A DNA stretch of 63,768 bases, filler included, from Collodictyon triciliatum (Eukaryota), in assembly GCA_043381765.1 (NCBI GenBank). It is 5 parts of 5 records of this genome, joined end to end, with 100 filler letters (N's around TTAATTAATTAA, not from the genome) between each part and the next. Parts side by side here need not be neighbours in the genome. Positions count along the whole stretch, not along the records: positions 13,346 to 26,587 come from JBHJMP010002019.1; 4 more parts are not named here. One strand, 5' to 3'. The notes beneath the pieces are model-generated. The model was not told the DNA's origin, made no database searches, and saw only the letters and a list, made by a program, of their open reading frames with translations. Both the position numbers and the translations under genes were made by a program. Below, piece by piece: positions 3,595 to 53,529 of the stretch; position 1 is the stretch's first letter; every line of letters starts with the position of its first letter.

Positions 3595-9711
<6,117 letters not shown>

Positions 9712-10902: not shown

Positions 10903-13135
<2,233 letters not shown>

Positions 13136-13245: not shown

Positions 13246-13345
13246 NNNNNNNNNNNNNNNNNNNNNNNNNNNNNNNNNNNNNNNNNNNNTTAATTAATTA
13301 ANNNNNNNNNNNNNNNNNNNNNNNNNNNNNNNNNNNNNNNNNNNN
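13246..13345. other. Artificial contig spacer (44 N + TTAATTAATTAA + 44 N)
   Basis: Six-frame-stop linker inside an N run; identical structure at three other positions. Confidence 0.97.
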
Positions 13346-13570
13346 TTTTTTTTTTTTTTTTTTCTTTTTCTTTTTTTTTTTTTTTTTCTTTTTTTTTTTT
13401 CTTTTTCTTTTTTTTTTTTATTATCGTTTTTTTTTTTTTTCTTTAAAAAATTTTTAAAAAAAACCCCCCCCCCCCCCCCTCTTCCATCTATGCATTAACC
13501 TTTCTTTCGATTTCTTTTTTCTATTCTTATTTTCAATTTCCAATTACAAAAATATCTGCATACTTGTCAG

Positions 13571-16500
13571 TTGCCATCGACGTATCCAACGTAATGTTGA
13601 GAGGCACAGTTCTCAGGAATACAGATTATGTCTATGGAGTTGTGATATTTACTGGGCAAGATACAAAAATATTCCAGAATTCGAGAGCTGTTCCCTCGAA
13701 AAGAAGTCATCTTGAGAAGCAAATCAACTCCATGCTCATCTACATTTTCATCGGGTATTGAATGAGATGGCTATGACACCGCAAGCATGATAAATAAACA
13801 GATAAATACATACATAAATGCAACATTTTTTTTTGGTATATGGTAATTGTGCCTCTCAAAAACAGAGAAATCTCTTCTTTTTTAAAAAAATTTTAAATAA
13901 TAATACAGACTTGGCCTTCTATGTCTATACTTCATGATTGCGCACATACTTTGGGTTGAGCAGCACCAGTCAGTAGCGTTTCTTAATTCTTTCTCATCAA
14001 ACCATCATCTCCTCCCTACATAAGTTTTACAATATCCTTAGATAAGCTTAGTGAATATAATTATAACCTTATGTTCACTTGTATGTCATTTCGATCTTAT
14101 ATATAGGTATAGGATAACCATTTTCGCAATCTCTATTTTATCATACATTACATTAGGGAGGACGTTTGGTACCTAGATAACCTTTCCTTTGATAGAGGGA
14201 TTAACAGCTCCTCCTCATTTATCACATTCTTAATTCTGTACAACAATCTGACTCCGATATCATTATATGTTTCCATGGAATTTGTGAGGTATTTTTGATT
14301 TATTACCTCAGAATACATCTATCTAAACACAAAATCGGCTAAAATAAAGTATCCTTCAAGATAAATATCTAAATATATTCTACCTTTATATTAATCTGCC
14401 TATGAATCCTGCTTAGACTCTACCAAGCAAAGTTCATAGACCAGGACTTAAACATGTACCACGTCGAAAAGGATACCCCAGCAAAGGCCCGTACATCTAA
14501 TCTGAACGAAGAACTAGGTCAAATTCAATATGTTCTGTCTGATAAGACTGGAACACTCACTTGCAACGAAATGCGGTTCTCAAAATGTTCCGTTCGAGGC
14601 CAGCTCTATTTTATGAGCCAAGATAACGCTCCAAGTAGTCCCCAACCTCTTCACGACCAGGTGAGCAATTTACACACTTTTTTTTTTTGCAGCAAAGCAT
14701 TTATAAAATGAAACATTTACGCATGTGTGTGATTATTTATGAACCAACCAACAAATATATCATTCAGGAATTGAGCGCTCCTCCTGGTTCAGCATACATC
14801 AGAAATAGCCACGAGCACGCATATGACGAACAATCAGATTTCATTCACGCTGCAAAGAAGAGATCTGAAATGACCCATTTTTTTCTTCTCGTTTGTGCTT
14901 ATATTTCACGACTTTATACTGTTTTGTCCTTTCAACATATCAAAGAGTGTTATGCAACATGAAAAATTTAGCACTTTTTTTTTAATCAGAATATGCTATA
15001 ATCTTGAACTAAATTCGTATCAGGTGATGTCTGTATGTCATACTGCTATTCCATCTAGAAAACGAAGGATTCAAAATAACGCGGATGACATTAGTCATGA
15101 AATTGAATTCCAATCTCCAAGTCCTGACGAAGTTGCCTTGTTAAAGTATTGTCCTGTGAATACCGTATCTTGACTGTGATGTATATAATGTTATGTCGAG
15201 TAGTTGTTTGTCATGCTTAAAATTTCCAACTCTTAGTGCTGCAAGAGAGGCAGGATACATTTTAGAGGAGCGTACTCAATCGTCCAGTTTGTGTTCAATA
15301 TTAAAATTTAGAAGAAAAATTACCCATGCGTGACATCCGTTTCTTTTTTATTTTTATGACAAGGACAAAAAAAAAATAAATAATCAGAAACAAAGTGTTT
15401 CGTTGTAAATGTGAAGGGTTTAGAATAAATCAGATATACTCACTTAGTATTATCTAACCAATGTTCTTATTACAGTTATTCTGAGAGTTCATGGCGAGAG
15501 AATTGTGTTCCAGGTTTTGAATATTAACGAATTCAATAGCACAAGAAAAAGAATGTCAATCATCGTGAAATCCCCTGATGAAAGAATATTTATGTTCTGC
15601 AAGGTAATTACTCTAAATAGCATACAGTCTCGTTTGATTATTTATACTATGCGCATGTAACACATAATGGAATAAATTTATTTCAAGCAAAATACTGAAA
15701 ATCAATATTTTTTTCTGATTCAGCATATTTCCTGACCACATTACTGAGATTAAAAAAAAACAATAATATGCATTAATTAGGGTGCTGATACTGTCATGAT
15801 GGAACGTATCGCGCCCAACCAACCATCACATGCCGAGACCATGTCCCATATTGATGGATTCGCTGAGGAGGGGCTTCGAACCCTTGTCCTTGCTATGGTA
15901 AAACCCTAATATCACAAATGAACCGTACGCATTATATATATTTGCTAGTTGAACGGCTCACATTTTCTTTTGCTATCAAGGCTGAAATAGAGCAGGATGA
16001 TTACAGTGAATGGAGCCAATTATTTACCTCTGCGAGTACATCATTATCAAATCGGCAAATACACATGGACGATGTAAGAGCGGAATACCATTCTGTGTCC
16101 GGTTTTATAATTTTTCTTTCATCTTTTCTTCTTTTTACATGATGAAAATTTATGGAGAAAATTACACTACCCGTTCGTCTGGAAATAAAAAAATCCTCGT
16201 AACCAAAAATATGTCGTGCCTCGGCATTCCTGGTAAAGGTGGCGTCTCTAATTGAAAAAGATATGGTTTTGTTGGGAGCAACAGCTGTCGAAGACCGTCT
16301 TCAAGAATCTGTGCCTGAAACAATTCAGACATTGATGCGCGCCGGTACTGTCACATTATAAGTTTTGAATATCTTACTTTTACTCAATATTTGATATGTA
16401 TCATTCTGTCATGCTTGCTTAGCTTTTTCACATCACATTTTTTGTGAGTCAAGGTATTCGTGTATGGATGCTCACTGGTGATAAGCAAGAGACTGCAGTC

Positions 16501-19500
16501 AACATAGCACATTCGACAAGATTGTTTCATCAAGAGATGCACATTATAAAAATCAACACCACTGATGAAGGAAAGCTAATGAGTGCAATCGGTGCAGGAA
16601 TTAAAAAATTTAGTGAGCAGTATGAAAAGGTTTCATACTTTCTATAGAGCAAAATACATATCTTTACTATTATCTGTACCCTATAAGAATTCATTTTCCT
16701 CTGTTTTTTTCTCATGTTGCAATCATTTTAATACTGATTCACTTGAAAAAAAATTGATATATATATATATTTAGAACGATACACTATTTGGTCTTATTGT
16801 GGATGGATCTACACTCCAAGTAATTCTGAAAAGAAAAGATATTCAAATAAAATTCTCACGTTTGATGAAAATTTGTACGTCTGTTGTCGCTTGCCGTGTT
16901 AGGTAATGCCCTGAATTTTAATTATTTGTATAATCAATGTTCATTACACACGCACAAGGACCCTGTCTCTTCTTTCTTTTCCTTTCTTTTTCTTTTTCTT
17001 TTTCTTTTTCTTTTTCTTTTTCTTTTTCTTTTTCTTTTTCTTTTTCTTTTTCTTTTTTTCTTTTTTACTTTTTATTTTTTTCTCTATCTTGAGTAACTAA
17101 TTATTTGAATAACTTTTCTTAGTCCTTCACAAAAGGCAGAAATTGTAAAGCTGGTTCGATCATCTGCAGACCCTGAGGTAAAAAAAGCTTTAGAAATATG
17201 AAGAAAATAACGATAATCATAAAGGATTATTTCAGAATTGAGTGTGAAACTATATAATTTCCTTCTGTCAAGTACACACTGAAATGCCTTTAAATTTTCG
17301 AAATATCATGTAGCCATTCACCCTCGCAATCGGAGATGGTGGCAACGATGTGAATATGATACAAGAGGCGCATATTGGCGTCGGTAAGCAAGCAATACGC
17401 GGCTGAAACTTTCACCTGATTCTTTACTTTGAAAATACTAAATTAATCTCGTTGAAAATTTACCTTTCACTTGCTTATATTTGCATTTCAGGTCTTAGTG
17501 GAAAGGAAGGAATGCAGGCTGTCCAATCAAGTGACTTTGCCGTGGGTCAATTTCGGTTTCTCAAAGATCTTCTATTGGTAGATCCCTTTATCATTATCTA
17601 TTTACATTCACTTAACGAGTCGGTATGTTGTATATGACGCGACAAAATCTTTTTGGGACACATATTAGCTTCCTTTTTAACTCAAACGATCAAGGTTCAT
17701 GGAAAATGGAATTACTACCGCATGTGCAAATTCGTTCTTTACTCGTTTTACAAAAATGTCACCTTTGTTTGCGTCCTTATTCTTTTTACGATGGACAATG
17801 GATACTCTGGAACTACATTATTTGATAGTTGGCTGGGTGCTGGATGGAATGTTGTATGGACATTTCTTCCAGTTATTGCCTTTGCAATTACAGATAAGGA
17901 TTGTTCGTAAGTTACATTCTGATTTAAGGTCAACTTATATTAATTTTCATGAAATATTACAAGCCTTGTAACCTAATCCGCCCTTAGCCGAACGCTTCTG
18001 AACCTACTTCCTCATTTGTACATGTACGGTCCTTTTGGAGTAAGTTGGACAATAGCGAATTCACTTGAAAACTACACTCGCAATAGAGTGCAGCCGATAG
18101 TTATTACCACGAATTTATTTATTCTCTATTATTTTCTTCGATTATCTTATTTGGTCGCAGATTTCTATAAATGAGCAAATAGAAACTTAATTCGAGTAAG
18201 GCATATGTCCTTCAAATAATCCATGCACGATTTTTTATGGGTTTTAATATATACCTGCCTAAATCAGATGGGATTTTCACTTGAAATATTTGGAAAATGG
18301 GTCCTGAGTGGGGTGGTTCACTCCATCATAATCTACTATGTCGGAAAGAACGCATTTAATGTAATTGTTTTCCTTTCATGAATAATCTCTGTATATACCA
18401 ACCTTTTATTAGCATCAATTACTCACTCCACTATGATTTATGTAATTTTCAGTCAATTATCTCTTCGAAGGGTTATTCAGATGGGATGTATATGTATGGG
18501 ACAATAATAAATTGTGCATTAATGCTTGTAGTCAACGCAAAGGTTTAGAAACTATTCAAAAAATCTTTGACTCATTTTACCTTTGAAAAGAAAATGATAA
18601 GCCTTTCTTCTGTGTCCATCAAATTACCCTAAATTTTAGATTTTGATGGAGTCTGTGTCATGGAATGCAGTGTTTGTGGGATCCGTTTTCCTTAGCGTTT
18701 TATCCTGGTTCCTTTTCGTTGCTGTATATTCATTCACATTTGCAATAAGTCCGGATTTCTACCACGTAGGCGTAGAAATGTTTTCAAGGTCTGGGAGCTA
18801 ACATTCATGTAATTGCATCTCTTTCTTAAAAATTGATGCATCCAATCAACCATCATTACACAATAGAACTGCATTCTGGATTGGGCTGCCATTGATCCCC
18901 ATCGTTTGTTGTATCGTTGAAATATCCATTAAAGTGTAATAGTCCTCATCGCTTTTTCTATTTTGTCCCTCTGTTTTCATCAAGCCTCGCCTCTATCATA
19001 CCAAATTATATCTAGAGTGGTCAACACTACCCTAATTTTCCTAATTTAAGATTACATTCGTCTATACGGCCATCCCCGATGGATATCTCGCGCGAAATAG
19101 AACATTTCAATTTGTATTATTAAATTAATATAATGAACACATTTTCACTCTTGGCTTAATCCCATCGCATGACATGTCTGATTAAGCCACATACACAGAC
19201 TCCCTCACTTGAAAAGAATCGTGTTGAGCCCTATTGAAGTTGAGCATGAACAACCTGCAAACCGCTCTCCCAGAGTTGCATTTTCCTCCGAAATCACTGA
19301 CGCAAACGGAATTAAGAGGTCAATATAAAGCCTTTTTCTACTTAAATTCATTTCATTTTTTTTTTTTTTTGTAGAATACAAAACCAATAAAAGGGAAACG
19401 CTCCAATAAATTAACTTCGAACAATTATATATAAATAATTACCAATATAGGAGCCTTAGCACCCAAGAAGAAATGGTTATTTATATTTCAATTCGAAATG

Positions 19501-19681
19501 AATAAAAACGTATTTGTATTAGAACATATATATTCATAATCATCTTGACAAAAAGAGAAAAATTCCAAAAATAATTTAAAAATAAACAAAACGAAAGTAA
19601 ACCGGAAGCATAAACGAAATCGAATAAAAACTGTTGGGTATATGTACATAGATGACTATTAAAATTTATCCCACTTTTGTC

Positions 19682-19780
<99 letters not shown>

Positions 19781-20484
19781 TTTGTTTCTTAATTATAGGA
19801 CCGGCAACCAGACGGAACCCAAACAGAACTCGGGGACATCTCTGAGGACAGTGCACAACTTATCTTTCGGTCAGAAATGAGCCGATTTTCGCTTGAATTT
19901 ATCAACGATACAAAATTAGAAAAGCACTTTCGGGTATTATGAGCGTTCACATGTTATTCATAATTTTTAGATATGAATCGATGCGCCATATAAGACATCT
20001 CTCCTCTGTTTTTCATTTCATATCACTTATGACTCTCTGCAAGACAATTTCTAAATTACATTTTACAAAATCACTTAATTGACCAATTTTTTTTTTTAAA
20101 AAAAAACGCTCGCAGTACTTCCATTTCTCTGTCTCCTTTCGATTGACTCGTATCGTCTGGCTGCTGGCATATTTGCTTTATTTCCTTAGTTTCCTTCTGT
20201 ATTTCAGAAATAATGAACATGGGAGAATTAGTTCTTATGGAAGAATCCTTACCATACTTATTTCTGGTAGGTTTTAAACGCATTACAATTTTTTTAGGAG
20301 CAAAAACATGGAATGAATATGAAACTATTTTTAAATATAATAGGTGCGTATACCAATTATGTTTTTGCGGTAACGAGGAAGAAATACTACCAGGAGACCG
20401 TTGGCGGAGCCTTTATAATTGGCGCTATCGTTATGGTGGCCATCAAATTACTGTGGAAACATATATTCAAAGAATCATAAACAC

Positions 20485-20580
<96 letters not shown>

Positions 20581-23531
20581 CAATATCCGCTTCCTTTTTT
20601 TTTTAACCCTTCCCTTTGCCCAGAGCCTACTTTAACTAACGTTTTTTGATTGTAAAAAACAAGGAACTGATCACTGAGAATCCAGAAAGACTTCTCTTCC
20701 AATCAATAACTCCATTATTTGGATTTATTGCTGGCGGATTACGGTTCAAATATGCATTGCCACTTGTTCTTGTCCACCAGATCATCTTCTTTATAGAATC
20801 ATTGTAACAATTCCATATGTTTTGGAGAATTTTTGAAAGCGAGTATATAAATTAGCTTCTCACCTTTCTAAACTTGCTAATATGATTTCACCTGGTGAGT
20901 CCATCATAGCTTCTAAAATTTTATCTTATCTGGGCGTTGCATCAAGATCCTCTGGTGTCAACGTTGTCCTTGTAAATTCCATTTTTATCTTCCTGATTAC
21001 TGGAATATCTGGATATGGAGCCTACTTCAGCGAAGTGTCGATGAGGCGAGATTTCTTATTACAACAGAAACTTCGTAGAGAGAAAAAAGTCACAAGGGTA
21101 TGTGTTCATATTTCTCTGATCTGATGACGTAGACATTATGTCACATACATCCATCGAAAAACTTTATTCGCTTCAAAGCTGAGTTATGTTGATTAATCCT
21201 TCTTTTTTTTTCTTTTTCCTCTAATTTATGTAAAGGATATTCTTGAGAATATGTTACCATCATTCATCGTCAACAAAATGCAGGATGGTGCGCGAGTGAT
21301 TGCAAATAACGAGGTTGTTCTTTCTCTCTTTTTTTTTTTTTTTTAAAAAAAAATAATAATAATTTGTTTGAAGTATTTCTACTTCACTGAACCCAATCAA
21401 ACATGTAACGATCCGCACACCAGCACTCAATATGTCTCCTGGATGTTGTTACTGAAAATTCTTAATCGCCTATATCTAAAATTGCACACCATGTTATTCG
21501 TATCTAAAATAAGTAACTGCTCAAATATTACTCAGAAAAGCGTGTCCGTGCTGTTCTGTGAAATACAGGACTTTGCAGACATCGTGACTGACTCTTCTCC
21601 AAGTGAATTTGTTGCACTACTTGATAAGATTTTTGATCATTTTGACTTTTTGTGTGGAAAGTATGACGTTCAAAAGATCGAAACTGTTGGTCCTATATAT
21701 ATGGTAAGCTCGAAAATTGCTCTTTTGACGAATATGAACTTCTTTTCTATTACCATCCTCTTTTATTTAATTTTTTCAATTTAATTATTGTTCACTAACA
21801 ATGGTGGTTTTGCTAATCTTGGTTCAATAAGGCATGTGCTGGCCTTCAACATTCTGATTCGAACCACGCATTGGCTGTGACCAAACTGGCGGAAAACATG
21901 CTGGAAGATTGTCATAAATTCATTCGGACAAACGGAGAACCAATCAAGTGCATTTTTCACCTTATTTATCTTCTCATTGTATATCGTGTCTTTTTGCATA
22001 AGCTCTTGTCTGTGTATCCTTACGCTATCTTAAGGAACCATAATATGGTAAATTATCAACACAAAGCTACAACCTTAATTACATAATCAGTATTCAATTT
22101 ATCTGCTGTCATAGGGTGCGTATTGGCATAAACACAGGTCCTGTTGTGTCAGGTGTTGTCGGGAAAAAAAAACCACAATATTGCTTATTTGGGGATACGG
22201 TAATCGCACATGCACTATATTTGCTTAAATTGCTCAGGCTTTTTCTTCTCAAGGCGCTTACAGAGTCTCCTACCCAGGTGAACACAGCCTCTCGAATGGA
22301 ATCCACTGCGCCTGTATCATCAATCCAAGTGACTCCGTCGACCTTCAAATTTATCTACACTTCGTATACCGCTATCGAGAGACAAGTGATAAAGAGAATA
22401 AAATTTCTTGGGATTAGTGCCGAACTGACTATATCATTATCTTTATCGTATTTCCTCCTCCAATATCTATCGAATATTTATCCTTAGCCGTAATAGGTGA
22501 CTGTTAAAGGAAAAGGTCTAATGAAAACATACATCATTCGCCCAAAACTAAGAACTCAAGCCTCAGTAGCATCCAAAATGATCCGTTCACGAAAATCAAT
22601 TGTATTGTTTACTAGAATATTGATAATTTGAAGTCATACTAGTCATTTATCATCTTGTTTTGTTTCGTCTTCTTTTTGCCTTTTTTTTTCTTTAAAAAAA
22701 AAAAGAAAGCAAACCTCACCAAAGTCGACATATGTCTTAACGAAAACAAAATAAATGACAATTTTTAGGCGGCAGTCAAACAAAGGAGAAGTTTTATCCC
22801 AAATTTAATTCCTAAACACATATTTGAGGTATGATTGCTTTAAGGAACCTTATTTGATTATATCGGGAATTTATCCCTTCAGTTTTCCTTCATATTCATG
22901 CTAAGTGATTCTCTATAGGAAGAAGACTTGGTCGACGAATCAGAAATATATCCGCTCTCTTTGCTTTTCAAGTCTAGAGACTTAGAACAAGCATACAACA
23001 GCGAAATCAAAGCTACTTTATTCAAGAACTTCCGATATAACCTCGTCCTCTTTATCCTTCTGTATGGCTCTACTCAGATGAACAATGTGATGCAGCACAA
23101 GACTTTCCATATTCTGTTTACTGAAGTCTTTGAGCTATTTATTTCTATGGTTATCTACTTAATAGGATTGCAATTTACATCATGTATGAGCATGCGAATT
23201 CATCTGACATGAACATCTCATTGACAATTATCCGGCTTATTTTTGTTGGTATGCTTTTTTTTTTGGATGATATCTATTTCCTTTGTCTTCTTTTTTTATT
23301 ACATAAAATACAGAAATATAGTAACTATGAATGATGAAGATAGAAACGTATTCTTTGATATTTTTTAAACCGAAAATCATCAACATTTATATTTAAGGAT
23401 TTGGTTTGGTATTTGTGTTTATCAATCGAATGCCAAGATTGGAGGGATACCTATCTGAAATTGCGGCAGTTATGTACCTGTACCTCGGCATCATTCTATC
23501 GATCAACTCATCTGTTAAGGTAGAAATATAA

Positions 23532-23562
<31 letters not shown>

Positions 23563-24209
23563 TTCATGTATTACGGGTCTGAATGACGTATTCTTTATGG
23601 GTAAGTTTTCTCATGCATTCAAATATTTGAATCATTTAGAGAATGAAAAATAACCCGTTACTCTCATAGGGAGAAGAAATAGGCGTTTTGACCACACTAG
23701 GAGTTACACAAGCCATAAGCTTTTTCTTCAATTATGGTGGCCTCCACTTCCACCAAGCTTTCAAAGTATGTTTGGGTATTGTGATTACCCTTTTGGTTGT
23801 TATTATAAACACCACTTCAAGGCATTCGCATCCGATGAGCAATCCAGAGTGGTACAAAGTAGGACCAGGAATCATGATTACATATCTCGTCATATATTTC
23901 GTCCTCAACGTAATCTCCAAATACTCGAAGGTACTCCCCCCTTATTCCCTTTATTCGATTCAAAAAAAAAATACTCCAAGTTACTTGATAGCATCATGCA
24001 TATACCATCGGCCACTTTGTCGACAAAACTAATTTTGGCGTGCATATCCTTTTTACGTATGATTATGACTCATCTCAGCTGTGTGTTGCAGGACCGATAC
24101 AACAGACGAACGTTTTTGTTGAGGACCTCCATCTCGAGAGAAATGAGACACTCCAACGATCTATTGAACTCAATGGCACCTCGAGGAGTTCTCCATCAAC
24201 TAAAGGTTA

Positions 24210-24305
<96 letters not shown>

Positions 24306-26217
24306 GTATTTATCTATTATGTCACTCTTTGGCCTTTTCTCTACATTCACTCGGCGAACAATCTACGATTAAAGAGTCTGTGTTACTTAACCGTCAATTT
24401 GTATCGGAATTATTAGACTGGGTCTAAAGTGGTTGCTCAGGTGTACGACAATGTCGCTATTTTATTTTCTGACATAGTTGGATTCACAGACAAATCATCC
24501 AAAAGCGAACCTCAGATGGTTTGTAGTTGATTCTTGATGGGAAATGAGCAAGAAAAAAACGTGGATACATTTTTCAACAAACGAGGTTTAACTCTTCGAC
24601 ATGAACATAAGATTGTTGAGCTTCTATCGACCCTTTTCAGTCATTTTGATGTTCTCACGTCCATCCATGAAGTATACAAAGTGCAAACGTATGTATTCAC
24701 GCATATGTGCTCTAATGGCCATCTAGTTAATCTTGAAGTTAAATCAATTCATATCTTTGACCTTTTTTTCTTTCAAAATGAAGAAGTAATATAAGATGAT
24801 AAACGATTGTCATGTGCATTGTAGAATTGGAGACGCTTATGTGGCAGTCGCAGGCATTCCTATTAATGAGACAGATGAAGTCGACACAGCGTCATCCTGC
24901 AAAAACATGATGGATTTTGGCATAGGAATGATTCGCGCTGTATTAGTTCCATACAAACATCAAATATTTGATAAGTGAAGTCTATGTTATCGATCACTTA
25001 TTTATTGGCTGTAATTGCCGCTTCTCCTCTTGATTTTTCTAACTCTTTCCTTTTTTTTCTTTTTCATTCATTTTTCTCTCCACTCTCCTCTCAGATATCT
25101 CAAATGCATACACCAGATAGCCAACCGGTCAAGATTCGTATTGGATTGCACTATGGGAAAATAGTTGGAGGTTCTGAATATTTGTTTCATTTCTAATATC
25201 TCTTTTCTTTTTCCTCTTTTTTTCTTTTCTTTCTTTCTTTTCTTTCTTTCTTTTTTTCTTTTTTTCTTTTTTTCTTTTTTTCTTTTTTCTTTTTTTCTTT
25301 TCTTTCTTTCTTTTTTTCTTTTCTTTCTTCTTTTCCTCCTTTTTTCATTTCTTTCTTTTCCTCCTTTTTTCTTTTCTTCTTTTTCTTCTTTTTCTTCTTT
25401 TCCTCCTTTTTTTCTTCTTTTTCTTCTTTTTCTCCTTTTTCATTTCTTTTTCTTCTTTTTCTCCTTTTTCATTTCTTTTTCTTCTTTTATTTATCCTTTC
25501 TTTCCTTATCTGTTATTTTTCACATACAGGATTCCACCAATCCCATATCGAGAAAGAATAATTATTTGGTTTCTATCGCTATATAACGGACATATCCTTG
25601 TGTTAGGACGAGATATACACCATCTTATGAGGGTCTAATCTTATGCATACAATAGGTGTCATAGGCCGAAAAACTCTTCGGTTCGATATTTGGGGCAGGG
25701 ACGTTATAATGGCCGCCACCATGGAGTCGAGTGGAACCCCAGGTTTTTTTCTATTTCCCTCATTATTGATGTTATCATCGTTAAATATTTATTTTCAAAA
25801 ACAAAACAAAAAAGTGGAGCTATCAAAATACCGAAATAAACGAAAAAAGCGGTTCACATGTGCCGGAAAAAAAACTTTATGTATATTTATGAAATTTACT
25901 GTATTTGCCTATTATCAATGAGCTCTTAATTCAGAAGAAGCTCCCTCTCTTTCTATTCTTTCATTCCTTTTTTCACAAAATGCCCGCAACCTTTCTGAGC
26001 CAAATACATATATATATATATATGAACTCGGCAATCGTGTGTTGGTGTACGCTCTTTGGTTTACCTACATTTCACAATTTCAACAGGCAAGCTGCATATG
26101 AGCGAAGCCTTCATGGAACAAATTGAAAAAGACTTTCAGATCGAGTCATGTCGTTATACAAGACTATCGAACGAAAGAGTTCTCAAGACATTTACCTACG
26201 ACCCCAACTCCACATAA
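13571..26217 (+). CDS. Bifunctional P4-ATPase (flippase)-guanylyl cyclase fusion, ~47 introns; N-terminus lost at the contig start
   Basis: P4-ATPase motifs: [28 protein letters not shown] (DKTGT from 14541), [46 protein letters not shown] exons continue in frame through 19051-19113, 19199-19318, 19451-19475, 19799-19933 and 20116 onward. They lead into TM cluster 1, cyclase C1 ([21 protein letters not shown]), TM cluster 2 and C2 ([19 protein letters not shown]). TAA at 26215-26217. Confidence 0.9.
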
Positions 26218-26511
26218 TTTTTTTCTCTTCATACTTTTTTATTATTATTATTATTACTATCATTTTCTGTGTGTGCGGCCCACCCCAACGTCCCACTCCA
26301 TCTACATCCACCGCAAACGCTCGCTCCTCTTCTCTTTGCGCATATGGCGGTGTTCCGCGCAGGAAACACTCAAGGTTCATATACGTGCCCGATGAAAATA
26401 AACGGTGTCATGCGAATCTCCCCGAAAAGAATGGCACGTCTCAACCTTCACCTATGACACTTTAGCGTTGTTGCTATTCTTGCCTCGGCATCCGCTCCTG
26501 CCTGAGTATCT

Positions 26512-26542
<31 letters not shown>

Positions 26543-26587
26543 TCTACAAAAAGGTCGGCTAGGGGGGGCGGCCCTCTTGCCCCCGCC

Positions 26588-26687
26588 NNNNNNNNNNNNN
26601 NNNNNNNNNNNNNNNNNNNNNNNNNNNNNNNTTAATTAATTAANNNNNNNNNNNNNNNNNNNNNNNNNNNNNNNNNNNNNNNNNNNN
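26588..26687. other. Artificial contig spacer
   Basis: 44 N + TTAATTAATTAA + 44 N. Confidence 0.97.
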
Positions 26688-27544: not shown

Positions 27545-30258
27545 ATGGTAGCTTGAAGCCTTTTCAGCCTTATATGTGATTCTACTTACTTATGTAACCA
27601 TAGCCGTGCATCTCTTCATTGCCCACTTTTATGGTTTGAACTTATTTTTGTTTGATTTTTGTGCCTTTTAATAGCTACCCGAGCGAACTTAATATTGTTT
27701 TATTTTGGCGCGCCGTTCTCTTCTTTTCCTTCTCACAGGTCAGCCTTGCTGGTGATGAACTACACGGTCTCATGAACCGGAGACACAACATCCGCAATGT
27801 AGCTTTGATAGAGTCTGCAAACAACACAATATCATTATTAATTGAATCACTCGCGATTAACCGTGGAGCTACTCGATTCGAAAAAGCCAAGGATGCCCAA
27901 CTCGTAGATTATCCAGAGGGCAGAGAAAAGCGAATCGTCGTCCCTCAATCCCCAAACAACTTATTATACTTCTTGTTGCCCGAAAATGTGCCACTGCCTG
28001 AAGAAGCTTATGGGCGTGAGTTTTTGATTAATGTCATCGATTCTCCTGAACACATGGGTATTGTATCGAGGGTGGCAGCGAGTCTACGCATTACAGACGG
28101 GCTTCTGGTAGTGGTTGAATGGGATGAAGGACTTACCGTACAAGCCGAGACTATTCTGCGACAGGCTCTGAGTGAGCGTATTGTCCCTACATTAGTTATC
28201 AACAAGTTAGACCGAGCCTTTCTGGACCAGAAGCTGGACCATGAGGACATATACCAAAAAATATGTTGCATCATCGAATCAGTGAACGCAATCATTTCTA
28301 CCTATCGTGATGAGGCAATGGTTGACCTACAAGTCTACGCATAGAAGGGGAACGTTGTCTTCTCATGTATGCAAGACGGCTGGGCATTTACACTTAATCA
28401 TTTTGCACGGACGTATGCGTGCAAGTTTGGCATGGATGAAGGGGTGATGTGCATGCATCTATGGGGTGACTCTTTCTATAATCCAAATGCCAAAAGTTGG
28501 GCAAGAGCTGGAGACAAGATGTTTAAGCGCGCATTCTCTCAATTAGTACTGGACCCTATTCAAAAAATTGTTGATGCCATAATGAACGAGCAATCGGAAA
28601 CTCTGGGAAATATGCTCTCCACTCTTGGCATTAAACTTCTTGCACAAGACCATGACCTACAAGGTAGGCAGTTAATTAGGTGCGTGATGAAAAGGTGGAT
28701 GCCAGCTGCAGACACCTTGCTTGAAATGGTGATTCTAAATCTACCATCGCCCGCCAAGGCACAGCGCTATCGTGTCGATGTTCTATACAGTGGTCCTATG
28801 GACGACCCTGCAGCCACAGCCATCCGCAACTGTGACCCAGATGGCCCTCTTGTCATGTACATCTCTAGAATGGTCCCCCGATTCAATAGCCCCCATTTTT
28901 TGGCGTTCGGTCGTGTATATTCTGGCACAATCCGATCGGGAGCCAGGATTCGTATTTATGGACGAAAGTATCACCCGGGGAAAAAGGAGGATCTATTTAT
29001 CAAGCCCATTCAGGACCCTGTATTATTCATGGGTGATTGTGTTGAAAGTGTCGATTTTGTTTCTTGTGGGAACATCGTTGGTCTGATGGGGATCGACCAG
29101 TATCTTGCAAAGTTCGGTACTTTAACTGACCTTGAATCTGCCCATCCAATCAAGAGTATGAAGTACTCTGCTTCGTCAGTTGTTAACATTCCCATCGACG
29201 TTCAGGACCCTGCTCAGTTGCCCAGACTTGTTGAAGGGCTCAGGCGATTGTGGAAGTCCGATCCTCTTATCCAGTGCGACACCAATGCTGCTGGTCAGTA
29301 TGTCTTGGCTGCTGAGAGCAAGCAGCATCTAGACTTGTGTCTAAAGGACTTTGAGGAAAACATCATGGCTGGTGTGCAGTTAGTTAAGTCTGCCCCTTTT
29401 GTGTCTTTTCGAGAGACGGTTACCTCAAATTCTTCAGTGGACTTGATGAGCAAGTCACCAAACAAGTGTAACCGTATATATTGCAGGGCTGAACCATTAC
29501 CTGATGGCCTCTCCGAAGATATTGAAGCTGGAAAAGTCAATGCCAGTGACAACCCCCAAATTCGTGCAAGGTACCTCGCAGAAAACTTTGGGATGGATAT
29601 CAGCAAAACCCAAAGAATTTGGTGTTTCGGTCCTAGAGGAACAGGCCCCAACATCCTTATTGATGCCACAAAACATGTGCAAAACTTGCTGGAAATTAAC
29701 GAATCAATCATCTCAGGTGTACAATTAGCGACGAAGGAGGGTGTGTTGTGTGAAGAAGAAATGCGTGGAGTCTGCTTCAACGTATTAGATGTTGTCCTTC
29801 ATCAAGATATATATAAGCGTGGAGTTGGCCAGATAATACCAAGCGCTCGTCGTGCATCGCTTGGCGCAGTGCTGATGGCCAACCCTCGTCTGATGGAACC
29901 CATCTACCTCGTCGAAATCCGATGTCTTGTGTCGGTTGTTGATCAAGTCTACTCTGTTCTCAGTCGCAATCGTGGTCAAATCATCGAAAAGAACCAGTGC
30001 GGAAGTGTATCCAAGTGCAATATCAAGGCATACCTCCCTGTGACAGAGTCCTTCGATTTTACCTCCGAACTTCACGACCAGACATCTGGCCAAGCATCTT
30101 CCCAGTTCACATTCGACCACTGGTCTATTATTCACGAATCTCCTCTCGAGCCAGGGAAGGCTGCTGATCTGGTCGCTGCCATTCGCAAAAGCAAAGGTCT
30201 TGAAGAAAGCATCTGTGACATATCTGTTTTCATGGATAGTTTTCACCCGAAAGTTTAG
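27545..30258 (+). CDS. EEF2: Divergent elongation factor 2 (eEF2) paralogue: degenerate GTPase motifs, no diphthamide His, one in-frame TAG at 28342-28344 (possible young pseudogene)
   Basis: ATG at 27545, then a GT-AG intron (27548-27738), then 'VSLAGDELHGLMNRRHNIRN'. Colinear with eEF2 throughout (FLINVIDSP, LRITDG, NKLDR, GWAFTL, SKSPNK, IWCFGP, PRLMEPIYLVEI, KAYLPVTESF, FDHW). The two ORF-track pieces are in the same frame. Confidence 0.9.
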
Positions 30259-31009: not shown

Positions 31010-31443
31010 TTTTTTTTTTTTTTTTTTGTTTTTTTTTGTTTTNNNNNNNNNNGTTTTGTTTTTTGTTTTGTTTTTTTGTTTTTGTTTTTTTGTTTTTGTT
31101 TTTTTGTTTTTGTTTTGTTTTGTTTTACTTTGTTTTCTTGACCTTTACCTGTGCTTGCTCTGTTTTTTTATATATTCTTTAGCACAACATAGACACACTC
31201 CAGTTTATATTAAATTGGAATGACCCACCTCCTCACTAAGTTTACTGTTTCTGTATGCAAACAAAATGGTGTGCAGGCAAGCGAGGAAATTAATTAAAGG
31301 TCGCATGCTCTATTGGAGTGACACTTCTTATCCTTTTCCTTTTCCTTTTTCTGGGAGAAAATATGCAGTTACTTCATTATAATATTCTCATTTATGCATG
31401 TTCGAATGGAATGATGAAAATGGTTCTGCAATATCCGCTCCAA

Positions 31444-34600: not shown

Positions 34601-36774
34601 AAGTCTCCCCATCAAACAGCAATACAAAGGTATGGGATGCCTAATTCTCATAGGATAGTACTTTTTTTTTTCATATGTTCTTCCTTTCGATTTGCACAAG
34701 ATAGTGGAGGTTTTGGCTTGGGTTGAATTGGAAACCGACACATCTTTATGCCTTTTTATGCTTAGTTTTGATACTGGTTTTTATTGCTCTTATGCGATTA
34801 CTAATATGATTGAGCGTTGGTTATTTTTTATATTCCATCAATAGACTCTTCTTTTTAATGCATACACCTGTAAAAGTCCTTTTAATCCTGTAATAATAAT
34901 CTTAGATTGCACATCCTCGTTCTCATATTGTGAAGACAAGTAAGTGTTTATAATTCCTCTTTTTTTAAAAAAAAAATACATAAATATTTACAAGAAAAAT
35001 TAAAGGCTCCAAGCTTTACCATTTTTAAGAGATTTTTTTTGTTCCAACGATTTGATCGGCTGATTAATGAATGTAATGCTTTTCCACATGCTTTGAACGT
35101 GTGGCACTAAAAGAAAAAATTCGCTCTTTGTTTGGTTCTTTTGTTATTGTAATAATAATGAATATAATAAATATACATACAAGAACTAACTCGATAAATC
35201 ATCACTAGCTCTCTCCGAAGGCGATAACAGCGTACATGCCTCTTCAAGGTTCAACGTAGGTCTGGTTGAACTGCAGGGACGCCGTTCAGCTATGGAAGAC
35301 TGTAGTGTAATATTTTCATACTTATATTCACAACCCTTAGGCCATTTCTCTCCATGCACCAACATTTTGTACCCTTTTTTTTTTCCGTATTCATTTATAT
35401 ATCTTGTGATTATAAGGAAAAAAAAATATATCTTGTGATTACATAGTCAGAAACTTAATTCAACCAGGTTGTGTTTGGCAACTTCCGAGGTCGAGCCGAC
35501 GAAGATTACTTTGCCATTTTTGATGGACATGGAGGAAAGGAGGTGTCCACATATCTTTCTCAGAATCTACATGATTTTCTTACAAAATCCATGGCCGCAG
35601 CGAGCGATATTTCTTCGTGCTTAACTACGGTAATCTTTTCAATTAGACATATATGTAAATGTGGAAATTGCATATCAACAACATAATATGGAATTATTCT
35701 GCAAGGATATCGCCTTCTTGCCCAGCTAACAAATACTAAATTCTTGCCTGGACCTAGGCATTCGAAACACTAAACCAGTCGCTTCCAAAGAGAAATTCTC
35801 ACTGTGGGAGCACTGCTGGTGTTGTTCTTGTCAAAAGAGAGACTATTTACGCAGGTGAGTAAAACTATACTCCTAGCTCAACCATGTCACATGTTGTAAT
35901 AAAACACCCATCCGTCTAGTAATGTATCATTTTGAAAAAAAAACTGCCTCAGATATTGCGATATTCGACTTAATTTTCTATTTAAATACTACGAATGAAT
36001 GATCATCCACATAGCAAATGCTGGCGATACTCGCATAATCTATTGCAGAGAAGGTAACTGCAGCGTCGTTTAATCATAAATCTTCGATGCGACTGAAGGA
36101 ATACCTACAAATGTCTGACTGACAAATCGCAATCGTCATTATCCCTTTCCAGGTGTACCCAAGAGGCTAAGTGTGGACCACCGGCCAACTTTACAGCAAG
36201 AATTCCAGAGAATACATGATTTGGGAGGCCAAATAATTAATAATCGTGTCAGTGGTACTCTTGCTGGTTTGTTTATTATCTTAAACTGATATATTTGCTT
36301 GCTAAACTTACACTTTTACTTGAGGGCTCGCAAGCTCTATAGTCAGTTTAGTCTAATTCACACATACTTTACAGTCACCCGAGCTTTTGGAGACTTCTAT
36401 CTCAGACCTTATGTTATCTCGAAACCGCACATCAGCATGCAAACCCTCGACTTTTCGGACCGCAGTTCCGAGGTAGAATATAATCCATTTGACTTCTATA
36501 TAACATCATCATCATCTCGATTGTATCTATTAAGTACTTTTCGGCTAAAATATATATATATATAGTTAAAATAATAATTTATCTGCAGGTCATAATCATC
36601 GCATGCGACGGCGTTTGGGATGTGATGTCTGATCAAGAAGTGGCGTCAATTGCCCATAAGTTTCTCAAATCAGGAAATCCAAATATCGCTGCAAAAGCCG
36701 TTGCCGAAGCCGCTTACCAACGAGGAAGCCCTGATAACATTTCAGTAATGGTGATAGAGGCATTGAAATCATAG
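30651..36774 (+). CDS. Multi-exon LRR (RNI-like) + Ser/Pro/Thr-rich linker + PP2C (PPM) phosphatase; 5' end uncertain
   Basis: LRR exons 'LSDLDLSSNLFDDE' and 'LKTNKTLKFLDLSSNRF'; linker exon ~34154-34629. PP2C motifs: GRRSAMED, YFAIFDGHGG, GSTA, ANAGDTR, DHRP, VTRAFGD, IIACDGVWD, GSPDNISV. TAG at 36772-36774. An in-frame splice path from LRR to PP2C can be drawn. Confidence 0.8.
35397..35441 (+). mobile_element. Ultra-short poly(A) retro-insertion with 16-bp TSD (intron of the PP2C gene)
   Basis: ATATATCTTGTGATTA (35397-35412) + TAAGG(A)n + ATATATCTTGTGATTA (35426-35441). Confidence 0.55.
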
Positions 36775-37165: not shown

Positions 37166-39701
37166 CTACTCCATGTCCACAGCTTTCTTGCCCACACTTG
37201 CAGCGCCGCGCGTGCCGGACTTGCCTTCTTTCTCGCGAGGAAGGTCCTTCTCCAGGCTGGACGTGGACGAGGACGCGCGCATCTTGCCCTTCTTCTTGCC
37301 TTTCGTCTTTTTGTTCATCCGCTCCAGGATGTTGGATGCCTCCTGCTTGATCTGCCGGCGGTCGAGAACCTCTTCTTCGTCGTCCTCCTCGTCGCTGTCA
37401 TCTTGGGGCACTGGGCAGTAAGTGCGGAGAGCAAAGCCAAGAGCAGTTATTAGAAGAAAGAAACAAAAGCATGTGTATCTTTTAAATAATAATAATAATG
37501 AAAATAAAAATAAAGGAGTGGAGGGCGCTCCATTTTGCATTACGAATTACGCATTTATTTGCCACAGGTAAGGACAGGACGGGGAAATGAGAAAAGAACA
37601 TGGAAAAGGAAATATATAGGTGCTACTGGATTTGAAGGATGGGACGGATAGAAACATACGTTCTTCCACATCGTCCACTGTGGGGACCTTGACACGGACG
37701 TTGAAGTGGGGGATGTCTTCCGTTCCAACATGTTTCTAGGGGAAAAGGGGATGCAGGACGCGGATATTGGCTGTTAGGATGAGTGAGGAACCGAAGGGGT
37801 CTGCGTGTGTGTGTGTAAATCGTCAATAAACTCACTGCGCCCGGCTTGTCCGCAGCAGATGATGCAGGCTCCCCGGCAACTGCGATGGGCTCTTCAGACA
37901 CGATGGTCTCCATAACCTTGGCAAGCTTCAACTCACACAAGGTCAGCACATCGACCACAGTCTCATCAGACATGGGGACAGGTGGCTGCTCCACTCGGAT
38001 AGAATCCAAACGGTCTGCGAGGTGTTCGATACCGGCCTGATTGAATGACTAGGGTGAGTCTCTGAGTCATATTTTTTTTCCTTTATTCGATGAGTCTCTG
38101 AGTCATATATTAGTTACTGTCAGTGTATAAGGTGTGCAATTATTATATCACTCTACCAGTGCCTAGGCTTTGACTCATTCTTTTTCGGCTAATTATTTTG
38201 GTAAAGTCTTGCTTCATTATTTATGTATATATGTATTTGTTTTACCTTCACGTTGACTAAAATCTTTGCGATCCTCTCATACTTTTGGCGATTACGCTCA
38301 CACTTGGAATTTGCTTCTGAAAGGTGGGTTTCGAATTCATCCACAATCCGACGGCTACCGAGTGAACCAGAAGCAGAGTACTTGATTTCTTCTAATTTTG
38401 CCTTCATTTGCGACTATCACACAAAGAGGATAATTACAAACTGGCCTTTAGAAACAGGCTGCATCGCCTGCTTTCGACAATTATTTGCATATATACATTA
38501 ATATATGATCAAATATACTTTCTCTTCGTTCAATGTTTCAATTCTTGTTTGAGCTTCTTGTTTCAAGGCTTGTAAGTTATTGTGCGTTTCCTCCTATGAA
38601 CGCGTAATGTTTCTCTCTTGAGTAATAATATTAAGAATAAATTGCGTGTCATAACCTTGCTGCACTTTGAATCGAATAAAGGAAGAAAAAAAAAAAAGAA
38701 GTTGAGTGTCACAAGTTATTTAAGATGGTTACAAGATCAATCTAAATATGATAAACGGGACTATGTATATTACCTGAGTGAGGAATTTTTGAATGACTTC
38801 ATTAACATCAGAGACGCCTGTCGCCTCCTTGATTTTTCGGAAGGCATCTTCATAACTTGTGATCTTCTTGGACTGTTCTTCTTCTCGTCTGGTCTCTTCG
38901 GTCACTGTGGATATATTGGTTTCATATAAGTATGCGATGGCTCCAATACCAGGTTTGTTTACTTTTGTGTGCGCCAATGATATTGTGCTGTGTCTAATTT
39001 CCCGTATTATGTTCGTTTTTACTTTGTTCTTTGCGAAGTTGTCTTTCCCGTTCCTCTTCTTTCTGTCGCTGCTCGTTCTGCTCAGCTCTCTATGAATCAT
39101 TAGGATTTGTTACGATATATTGCCGAATTCTATTAAATGCTTAGGTTGGAAACAAGACCCAGTGATAGTGTAATGACTATGAATTATTTAGTTTCTCAGT
39201 AGAATTCTAATTTTACTCTTTTCTCCATTCGATCATTCATTTCCTTCTTCGCTTTAACCATCTGTCTCTTTTCTGATAGCTCAGCCTCTCGAGTTTTTCT
39301 CTCTTCCTCCATGGTTTGTTCAAATCTGGCCAGCTCAGCCTGGATGAGTTACAGCGAACAAAACATCAATAGACCACTCATGTGTGTGTGTTTGTTTTTG
39401 TTGGTGTTAACCTTGGACGCTAGTTGCTCGCTAGAGCAGGACACTGAAAAAAGAAAGAAAAAGAATGACAAACCAGTGCAACGTCTCGAGCGTGGTTGGC
39501 GTCTCGGCACATGACCAATAACTCTTCATAGTCGTGCTCTTTAGCCTTTGTGGCCCGCTCGATTGCTTGGAGCTGGTTATCAAAAGTCAACCGCTCTTCT
39601 TGAAGGCGCTTCACGATTTGCTGGTACGTCTTTTTTATGCTGATGGCTTCGTTATACTTGATCATCGCCTTGTCCAATCTGTTTTCTAGGGCGCGGATTT
39701 G
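37166..39701 (-). CDS. CCDC151: Outer dynein arm docking/assembly coiled-coil protein, CCDC151/ODAD3-like; 5'-truncated at the contig end
   Basis: Exons 'IRALENRLDKAMIKYNEAISIKKTYQQIVKRLQEERLTFDNQL', 'ITSYEDAFRKIKEATGVSDVNEVIQKFLTQ', 'KYERIAKILVNVK|AGIEHL' and an acidic 'DDSDEEDDEEEVLDRRQIK' tail. Confidence 0.8.
38055..38108 (-). mobile_element. Ultra-short poly(A) retro-insertion with perfect 18-bp TSD (CCDC151 intron)
   Basis: TGAGTCTCTGAGTCATAT at 38055-38072 and 38091-38108 flanks the reverse complement of TCGAATAAAGG(A)7. Confidence 0.75.
38639..38714 (+). mobile_element. Short poly(A) retro-insertion with decayed 16-bp TSD (CCDC151 intron)
   Basis: CCTTGCTGCACTTTGAATCGAATAAAGG plus an A-rich tail, between AAATTGCGTGTCATAA and AAGTTGAGTGTCACAA (13/16 identical). 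Confidence 0.65.
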
Positions 39702-39900: not shown

Positions 39901-40000
39901 NNNNNNNNNNNNNNNNNNNNNNNNNNNNNNNNNNNNNNNNNNNNTTAATTAATTAANNNNNNNNNNNNNNNNNNNNNNNNNNNNNNNNNNNNNNNNNNNN
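39901..40000. other. Artificial contig spacer
   Basis: 44 N + TTAATTAATTAA + 44 N. Confidence 0.97.
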
Positions 40001-53206: not shown

Positions 53207-53306
53207 NNNNNNNNNNNNNNNNNNNNNNNNNNNNNNNNNNNNNNNNNNNNTTAATTAATTAANNNNNNNNNNNNNNNNNNNNNNNNNNNNNNNNNNNNNN
53301 NNNNNN
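53207..53306. other. Artificial contig spacer
   Basis: 44 N + TTAATTAATTAA + 44 N. Confidence 0.97.
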
Positions 53307-53529
53307 TTTCCTTTTCCTTTTCCTTATTCCTTATTCCTTATTCCTTTTTCCTTTTTCCTTTTTCCTTTTTCCTTTTTCCTTTTTCCTTTTTCCTTTTTCC
53401 TTTTTCCTTTTTCCTTTTTCCTTTTTCCTTTTTCCTTTTCTTTTCCTTTTAGCACCCTCAAATTTTGAAAGGTCTGATACGAGCCATCAAGATTATACAG
53501 TACTTTGAACAGCACCTTCTTGAAAACGA

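Follow-up and report, generated by a model that had tools for sequence, protein, structure and literature searches.

An intron-rich locus that very probably encodes a P4-ATPase–guanylate cyclase chimera of a clade absent from the current survey

The window analysed here is a stretch of DNA of 63,768 bases. A single open spliced frame on its plus strand (13571..26217) joins a P4-ATPase (flippase) module to a cyclase module. It is composed of 48 exons and 47 GT-AG introns. Its 1795 codons contain no internal stop, and it ends with ...TYDPNST and a TAA at 26215-26217. Peptides of both modules are already visible, in short exons, among the plus-strand stop-to-stop open reading frames (ORFs). The locus is very probably a single gene whose protein product is a P4-ATPase–guanylate cyclase chimera (P4GC), and it is seen from the third transmembrane helix (TM3) to the stop codon.

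The window consists of five joined pieces, ~13.2 kb each, with a final piece of ~10.5 kb. They are separated by four spacers of the form N44-TTAATTAATTAA-N44 (13246-13345, 26588-26687, 39901-40000, and 53207-53306). What is seen of the gene lies wholly inside the second piece (13346-26587), which has no N; an additional gap of 10 Ns is seen in the window at 31043-31052. Because the pieces are joined, the gene is 5'-truncated at 13346 by the construction of the window, not by biology. The first exon in the window begins right after an acceptor AG (Table 1). About 225 N-terminal codons, DGET motif included, are outside the window. Residues 1-~225 of the relatives, which contain TM1-2 and the DGET motif of the A domain, have no counterpart in the window; all tblastn matches there were at chance level (E >= 0.1). 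The entire protein would be ~2020 amino acids (aa) long.

The gene model was obtained with a custom protein-to-genome dynamic programme, which accepted only GT..AG introns, in all three phases and with affine gaps, and was run on 13346-26587. The guides were two full-length relatives, P0003 (2063 aa) and P0004 (2038 aa), both TransDecoder "complete" ORFs that extend from PhoLip_ATPase_N through Guanylate_cyc. With either guide the model has 48 exons, each preceded by AG and followed by GT, without any in-frame stop, and the alignments covered residues 225-2029 of P0004 and 229-2057 of P0003. The P0004-guided model contains 5379 coding bases, and 1227 of the 1788 aligned residues are identical (68.6%). 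Its spliced-alignment score is 5846, whereas the reverse complement reached 114 and a shuffled query 90. Intron lengths range from 77 to 485 nt (median 141) and exon lengths from 16 to 261 nt (median 107), with a G+C content of 28.6% and 41.0%, respectively. If retained, 44 of the 47 introns lead to an in-frame stop. Microsatellites, such as (ATT)n and (CTT)n, or splice-flanked T/C tracts make up most of several introns (16950-17080, 19690-19780, 20480-20600, 24210-24350, and 25180-25560). An earlier note on this DNA had described a standard genetic code, a very intron-rich genome and no long Asn-rich inserts. For this gene, all three descriptions are borne out by the 1795 sense codons before the TAA, by 47 introns in 12.6 kb, and by an Asn content of 4.2% with a longest Asn run of two. 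Judged from its sequence, the gene is real, intact-looking and apparently functional.

The flippase half shows 67.6% identity (602/890) to residues 225-~1105 of P0004. Pfam analysis of the raw ORFs of the window detected PF13246 and, at 17638-17907, PF16212 (100.6 bits). Eight hydrophobic segments are seen by hydropathy in this part. Of the motifs for catalytic competence, these are present in the window: the phosphorylation site DKTGT; KGAD and F..RKRMS of the N domain; TGDK and GDGxND of the P domain; and PISL of TM4. The A-domain motif of the relatives is DGET in P0003 and P0004 and DGES in P0007. ATP8A1 (848 bits) and Drs2 (798) are the solved structures with the highest scores for the P0004 ATPase half, followed by ATP8B1 (747), Dnf1 (626), ATP11C (604), and Neo1 (408). 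By its sequence, the N-terminal module is a phospholipid flippase of the P4A type, similar to ATP8A1/Drs2, in which the phosphorylation site and the motifs for nucleotide binding are intact.

The cyclase module contains two sets of six hydrophobic helices and two catalytic domains. PF00211 was detected in four raw ORFs, which correspond to two separate domains. Hydropathy gives 8 + 6 + 6 membrane segments for the gene in the window, with TM1-2 outside. In comparison with the Protein Data Bank (PDB), the first cyclase domain of P0004 aligns to IIC2, bacterial cyclases and guanylyl cyclase chains, and the second aligns to C1 of AC5, AC9, and AC8. These alignments indicate that the catalytic domains are in swapped order relative to mammalian adenylyl cyclases. 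Such an order is typical of protist guanylyl cyclases. A Glu/Cys base-recognition pair, Asn/Arg, and two metal-binding Asp residues are all present. The metal-binding Asp motifs are confined to the second catalytic domain, where LFSDIVGFT and TIGDAY are found. The roles in base recognition, transition state and metal binding are those which we take to be established for transmembrane adenylyl cyclases and guanylyl cyclases, and the combination of Glu and Cys is presumably the guanylyl-cyclase pattern.

Between the two modules, no stop follows the last ATPase helix. TM10 is located at 18874-18930 and exon 22 at 18867-18935, and the frame then passes four linker exons (~120 residues) into the exon starting at 20116. 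The junctions 19113/19199, 19318/19451, 19475/19799 and 19933/20116, proposed in the earlier note, were recovered by spliced alignment, and alternatives also exist. In-frame acceptors are found at 19217 and 19460, and a direct in-frame splice from 19319 to 19852 works without the micro-exon. As several in-frame paths exist, the fusion is independent of any one doubtful splice site. PRVAF (19269-19283) and SLEFIND (19889-19909) are conserved linker motifs of the clade. PRVAF and LEF.ND are kept in P0001 and P0003-P0005, and are weaker in P0006 and P0007. The spacing from PRVAF to SLEF.ND.LEK.FR is 53 residues here and ~55 in P0004, and in the relatives it falls within single ORFs. PRVAF is ~50 residues past TM10, and to us it is reminiscent of G(Y/F)AFS, a motif in the autoinhibitory tail of ATP8A1/Drs2. 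To compare the two motifs, the P0004 linker (59 residues) was searched against the PDB, and no match was obtained.

Table 1. Positions, along the whole window, of the modules and motifs of the P4GC gene and of other features
Feature	Position	Strand	Basis or remark
Intron 3' tail, long T/C tract	13346..13570	+	Acceptor AG 13569-13570; upstream exons beyond spacer
P4-ATPase (flippase) module, exons 1-22, TM3-TM10, P domain and N domain	13571..18935	+	Spliced alignment, Pfam, hydropathy
TPISLYV	14251-14271	+	Motif mapping
DKTGTLT phosphorylation motif	14541..14561	+	Motif-to-genome mapping
Flippase signature (11 residues)	15526-15558	+	Motif mapping
KGAD, intron-split	15601-15789	+	Motif mapping
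TGDKQETA	16474-16497	+	Motif mapping
Flippase signature (11 residues)	17332-17364	+	Motif mapping
YSFYKN	17740-17757	+	Motif mapping
Linker, exons 23-26 (19051-19113, 19199 or 19217-19318, 19451 or 19460-19475, 19799-19933)	19051..19933	+	Spliced alignment
First six cyclase TM helices M1-M6, exons 27-30	20116..21097	+	Hydropathy peaks at model residues 951-1090; alignment
First catalytic domain, mammalian C2-like, exons 31-36	21236..22601	+	PF00211 on ORFs 21347-21781 and 22044-22484
KIETVG with base-recognition Glu, first catalytic domain	21674-21691	+	Motif mapping
Asn/Arg motif (16 residues), first catalytic domain	22179-22304	+	Motif mapping
Inter-domain segment and second six TM helices M7-M12, exons 37-41	22769..23930	+	Hydropathy peaks at residues 1401-1557; alignment
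Second catalytic domain, mammalian C1-like, exons 42-48	24092..26217	+	PF00211 on ORFs 24531-24791 and 25631-25918
LFSDIVGFT, metal-binding Asp, second catalytic domain	24462-24488	+	Motif mapping
Metal-binding Asp motif (11 residues), second catalytic domain	24687-24855	+	Motif mapping
RTATCYTT copies in introns	14032, 14349, 16658, 22014, 24044, 24751, 25592	+	None at a donor used by the model
PP2C exons	35459-36771	+	
ODAD1 (outer dynein arm docking) exons	38732-39701	-	
Narf/Fe-hydrogenase-like exons	49697-50291	-	
OATP-like transporter exons	61774-62073	+	

Relatives with the same architecture were found as single ORFs. The 64-residue exon at 21521-21712 retrieved two transcriptome ORFs. 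One of them, P0001, is 88% identical and carries PF16212 (PhoLip_ATPase_C) and PF00211. A search of longer proteins with P0001 gave 17 matches among 4215 candidates: seven with P4-ATPase domains, PF16212 among them, and PF00211 (P0003-P0009), nine plain P4-ATPases, and one cyclase only. No 100% identical protein was found in the exon and P0001 searches. Identities in the flippase and cyclase halves are 67.6% and 69.6% for P0004, and 65.7% and 64.7% for P0003. The fusion is transcribed in relatives, as single transcriptome-assembled ORFs. The isoform pairs P0004/P0005 and P0001/P0003 come from one Trinity gene each, and have an identical flippase part with a differing linker and cyclase half; they are either collapsed paralogues or one pump joined to alternative cyclase modules.

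A HMMER search with P0002 (cyclase half) detected 48,164 proteins at E <= 0.001. The 157 rows examined comprise 148 new matches among the best 150 of these 48,164, P0001-P0009, and the window model; 96 of the 157 also match the flippase half of P0004. The labels oomycete-like, bicosoecid-like, haemosporidian-like, ciliate-like and "long6" given to them are short-motif matches to the FASTA sequences of PMC13466520 and may be wrong. The cyclase FastTree contains 145 of the 157 rows, after removal of rows that spanned less than 600 query positions or exceeded 1500 residues. The window gene forms a clade of nine rows together with P0002-P0007, P0140, and P0176 (FastTree support 100). Seven of the eight database proteins in this clade have flippase sequence N-terminal to the cyclase, the exception being P0002. 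P0001, an isoform of P0003 that is off the tree, is also fused. The eight proteins and this isoform come from at least five Trinity gene groups.

Separate phylogenies of the two halves, as suggested in the earlier note, place both with the fused family. A quick site-heterogeneous cyclase tree of 46 hand-picked representatives separates 38 fused rows from eight non-fused 12-TM cyclases (SH-like approximate likelihood ratio test, SH-aLRT, 99). The window clade appears there as the sister of the remaining 29 fused rows (SH-aLRT 93). In our own IQ-TREE LG+F+G4 runs, joining the clade to either large group costs 10.4 or 10.7 log-likelihood units (approximately unbiased (AU) test, p = 0.089 and 0.062). 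The position as sister to all other sampled P4GCs is not significant, as the AU test rejects neither alternative. The ATPase-half tree contains 49 rows, after removal of P0001, P0005, and fused rows with less than 300 bits or 800 positions. It separates 39 halves of the pump-then-cyclase type from nine stand-alone P4-ATPases with weaker support (SH-aLRT 89, short branch), and the window clade is one of four deep lineages whose order is not resolved. These trees indicate that both halves derive from the fused family, not from stand-alone genes, although less firmly for the ATPase half. The gene belongs to the known P4GC family. Its clade is absent from the current survey, and is possibly basal to it. 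One protein, P0181, has the reversed order, with the cyclase N-terminal to the P4-ATPase. It groups in the ATPase tree (SH-aLRT 96) with a [Pythium] brassicae P4-ATPase (P0014) fused to ion-channel and cNMP-binding (cyclic nucleotide-binding) domains. P0181 and P0014 represent a different family of flippase fusions.

Several points weigh against the reading of the locus as one gene for an active P4GC. The exon structure at the locus is read from genomic sequence, and the nucleotide specificity from two residues. The DGET motif and TM1-2 lie upstream of 13346, outside view. Apart from PRVAF and S/T-LEF-ND-LEK-F, the linker is poorly conserved and for this reason its exact exons are uncertain, with a micro-exon of 16 or 25 nt or a 19319 to 19852 splice. 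Retention of intron 23 stops the ATPase three codons past 19113, so that an isoform with the flippase alone may exist. The "complete" ORF P0002 (930 aa) comprises the cyclase half only, which means that cyclase-only products may exist in the clade, or that its contig is partial.

The two catalytic domains are expected to pair into one active site. The second domain would supply the two metal-binding aspartates. The first would supply the GTP-selecting Glu/Cys pair and the transition-state-stabilising Asn/Arg. The product would be cyclic GMP (cGMP). With Plasmodium GC-alpha and Toxoplasma GC as analogues, the cyclase output is most likely gated by, or dependent on, the flippase module together with a CDC50 subunit that another locus would encode. 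Changes in membrane lipids or ions could thus be converted into a cGMP signal. PfGC-alpha and its P4-ATPase activity are reported as essential for cGMP synthesis in the available part of PMC7858053. Pfam was run on 265 of the 310 ORFs (55 aa or longer) that lie outside the piece of the gene, as well as on 13 long ORFs, and neither CDC50 nor a cNMP-binding domain was detected. An exon of the cyclic-nucleotide phosphodiesterase family (PDEase_I, E = 5e-10), likewise a component of cyclic-nucleotide signalling, is located in a different piece at 45429-45632 (+), with membrane-like ORFs at 42829-43690.

It is unlikely, though worth serious consideration, that the architecture is real while the flippase is a sensor or scaffold instead of a working pump, or the cyclase makes cyclic AMP (cAMP). 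Table 2 of Wiser 2026 (PMC13466520), in the portion available, records several lineages in which the phosphorylation Asp or the Glu of DGET is replaced in the flippase module. Here DGET is outside view, and the earlier description of the ATPase as apparently catalytically intact holds for the P and N domains, where the motifs that it listed (DKTGT, KGAD, TGD, and GDGxND) were all mapped, and does not extend to the A domain. However, all signatures checked in the visible flippase part are canonical, YSFYKN among them, and DGET or DGES is kept in the relatives. Identity to P0006 and P0007 is 52% and 50% in the flippase half versus 40% and 40% in the cyclase half, and within the clade the halves are equally conserved. 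Conservation of the flippase half at least as high as that of the cyclase half argues for constraint on the pump. As to cAMP, the specificity is drawn from two residues, and these form the Glu plus Cys pair that we take to be the pattern of guanylyl cyclases.

A second alternative concerns the junction. The locus could be two adjacent genes. In this case a stand-alone P4-ATPase would end, by read-through or polyadenylation, within 19114-19798, a promoter in the linker introns would drive a 12-TM cyclase gene of its own, and the open linker frame would be incidental. The stop three codons into a retained intron 23, the weak linker conservation and the cyclase-only P0002 fit this view, and abundant GT/AG sites make some in-frame path, of which three were found, not unlikely. 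It is nevertheless quite improbable. The motifs flanking the linker, PRVAF and SLEF.ND.LEK.FR, are equally spaced inside single ORFs of the relatives, and fusion is the rule in the window clade, in seven of eight database proteins and the isoform P0001. Moreover, no upstream region belongs to the cyclase half alone, the downstream frame being open only from the acceptor 19799 onwards. The single fused flippase–cyclase gene, already proposed in the earlier note together with its 12-TM cyclase, remains the preferred reading. An assembly chimera, in which two loci were mis-joined at the (ATT)n microsatellite that makes up most of intron 25 (~19690-19780), is hardly credible even though this repeat lies exactly between the modules and is a typical mis-join spot for assemblers, because 13346-26587 has no Ns, the exons flanking the repeat are two ends of one orthologous linker in the relatives, both halves rank P0004 and P0003 alike with nearly equal identity, and at most two paralogous P4GC genes would have been joined, leaving the fusion itself real.

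The host lineage bears on how this single fused gene is to be interpreted. That the chimera occurs in alveolates and oomycetes, as the earlier note had it, agrees with Wiser 2026, which adds bicosoecids: as far as the available part of that survey (PMC13466520) goes, its 177 P4GC genes from 132 species all belong to alveolates, oomycetes or bicosoecids. Five motifs of the window clade, LEFIND among them, have no occurrence in the accessible sequence files of PMC13466520. CLFGDTVN, with Cys at the purine-selecting position, occurs twice in the same files, and most sequences there have Ser or Ala. A literature text search for P4-ATPase and cyclase with Physarum, Amoebozoa, Rhizaria or Cercozoa found, among the papers listed, no report of such a fusion in these groups. 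The Physarum genome paper (PMC4758236) mentions, in the part available, cyclases with domains for "calcium export", which might be P-type ATPase fusions or of another kind.

Some features of the window point weakly towards Amoebozoa. An EF2 protein, P0020, is 70.8% identical to Acanthamoeba EF2; the values for two fungi (68.3-68.9%), five animals (65.1-66.5%), and a grass (64.6%) are lower, in a set without alveolate, stramenopile and rhizarian EF2. In the Atlas, P0020 matched only generic EF2 clusters, and P0004 had no usable match. Its sister on the tree is an intronless EF2-like frame of the window (27640-30258, +), on a very long branch (1.72). The window frame is interrupted by a TAG (28342-28344) and its GTPase motifs are degenerate; a processed pseudogene is probable, or else a paralogue that evolves fast. 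RTATCYTT, the 5' splice-site word of U12-type introns, is found 29 times across the window versus 14.6 expected, and none of 100 shuffles reaches 29. Within the introns of the gene there are seven copies versus 2.1 expected, and six of 500 shuffles reach seven. Physarum introns contain simple repeats and pyrimidine tracts, according to the part of PMC4758236 available, and a Physarum preprint gives 20,899 U12-type introns (roughly 12% of introns by division of its numbers). The repeat-filled, pyrimidine-rich introns and the two-fold excess of RTATCYTT resemble Physarum polycephalum. In contrast, none of the 47 donors here is of the U12 type, and the lack of an identical protein in the exon and P0001 searches also speaks against Physarum.

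We hold only as a tentative possibility, somewhat short of even, that the host is neither an alveolate nor a stramenopile but, for instance, a rhizarian or a myxogastrid-like amoebozoan, and that the clade is sister to all described P4GCs. If so, the fusion predates the stramenopile–alveolate ancestor, or a transfer between supergroups occurred, and the 2026 conclusion that P4GCs are confined to alveolates and stramenopiles would be overturned. The clade is well populated and outside every group of the latest survey, and so bears directly on the place and time of origin of the fusion. The cGMP signalling behind apicomplexan motility, invasion and egress starts with P4GCs, and we know of no solution to how pump and cyclase communicate in them. 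The protein is compact (~2020 aa), insert-free and canonical in its motifs, and its clade has an animal-type Glu/Cys signature. Such a compact canonical protein is attractive for biochemistry and cryo-electron microscopy of the coupled enzyme.

Other features of the window lie mostly in other pieces (Table 1). The ODAD1 match implies a flagellate stage. Minus-strand exons for leucine-rich repeats (6290-6980) and for a tyrosine-kinase-like protein kinase (10906-11981) in the first piece may belong to one LRR-kinase gene. An intronless ORF of 823 residues (53524-55992, +) is rich in hydrophobic stretches and has no Pfam match. A similar-looking ORF (57048-57665, +) is present 1 kb downstream, which suggests a tandem family. 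No Rfam family was detected in the window, and no tRNA by ARAGORN.

The modules of the gene have separate counterparts in known proteins. Like ATP8A1/Drs2p, the P4A flippases that act with CDC50, which are the best solved-structure matches of the P0004 ATPase half (residues 11-1090), the flippase module has all P- and N-domain signatures and PISL of TM4. Unlike in those proteins, its C-terminal tail runs on into the cyclase. The cyclase module shares with the mammalian 12-TM adenylyl cyclases (AC5, AC8, and AC9; PDB E-values 1e-52 to 1e-59) two six-helix bundles and two class III domains forming a pseudo-heterodimer. It differs in the swapped catalytic domains, in Glu/Cys (GTP) replacing Lys/Asp (ATP), and in the N-terminal flippase. 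Dictyostelium GCA shares this plan of helix bundles and class III domains. It is described as a similar two-domain guanylyl cyclase that lacks the ATPase region (PMC6592433, in the part available).

The closest known systems are the published P4GCs, namely the guanylyl cyclases of Paramecium and Tetrahymena, GC-alpha and GC-beta of Plasmodium, and Toxoplasma GC. They have a 10-TM flippase followed by six TM helices, a cyclase domain, six TM helices, and a second cyclase domain, and the same order is seen here. The swapped catalytic domains are also shared, and in the trees each half falls within the fused family. The estimated length agrees with the ~2000-2100 aa common among the best 150 matches. 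Compared with fused proteins outside its own clade, the window gene is only 33-40% identical to P0149 and P0171.

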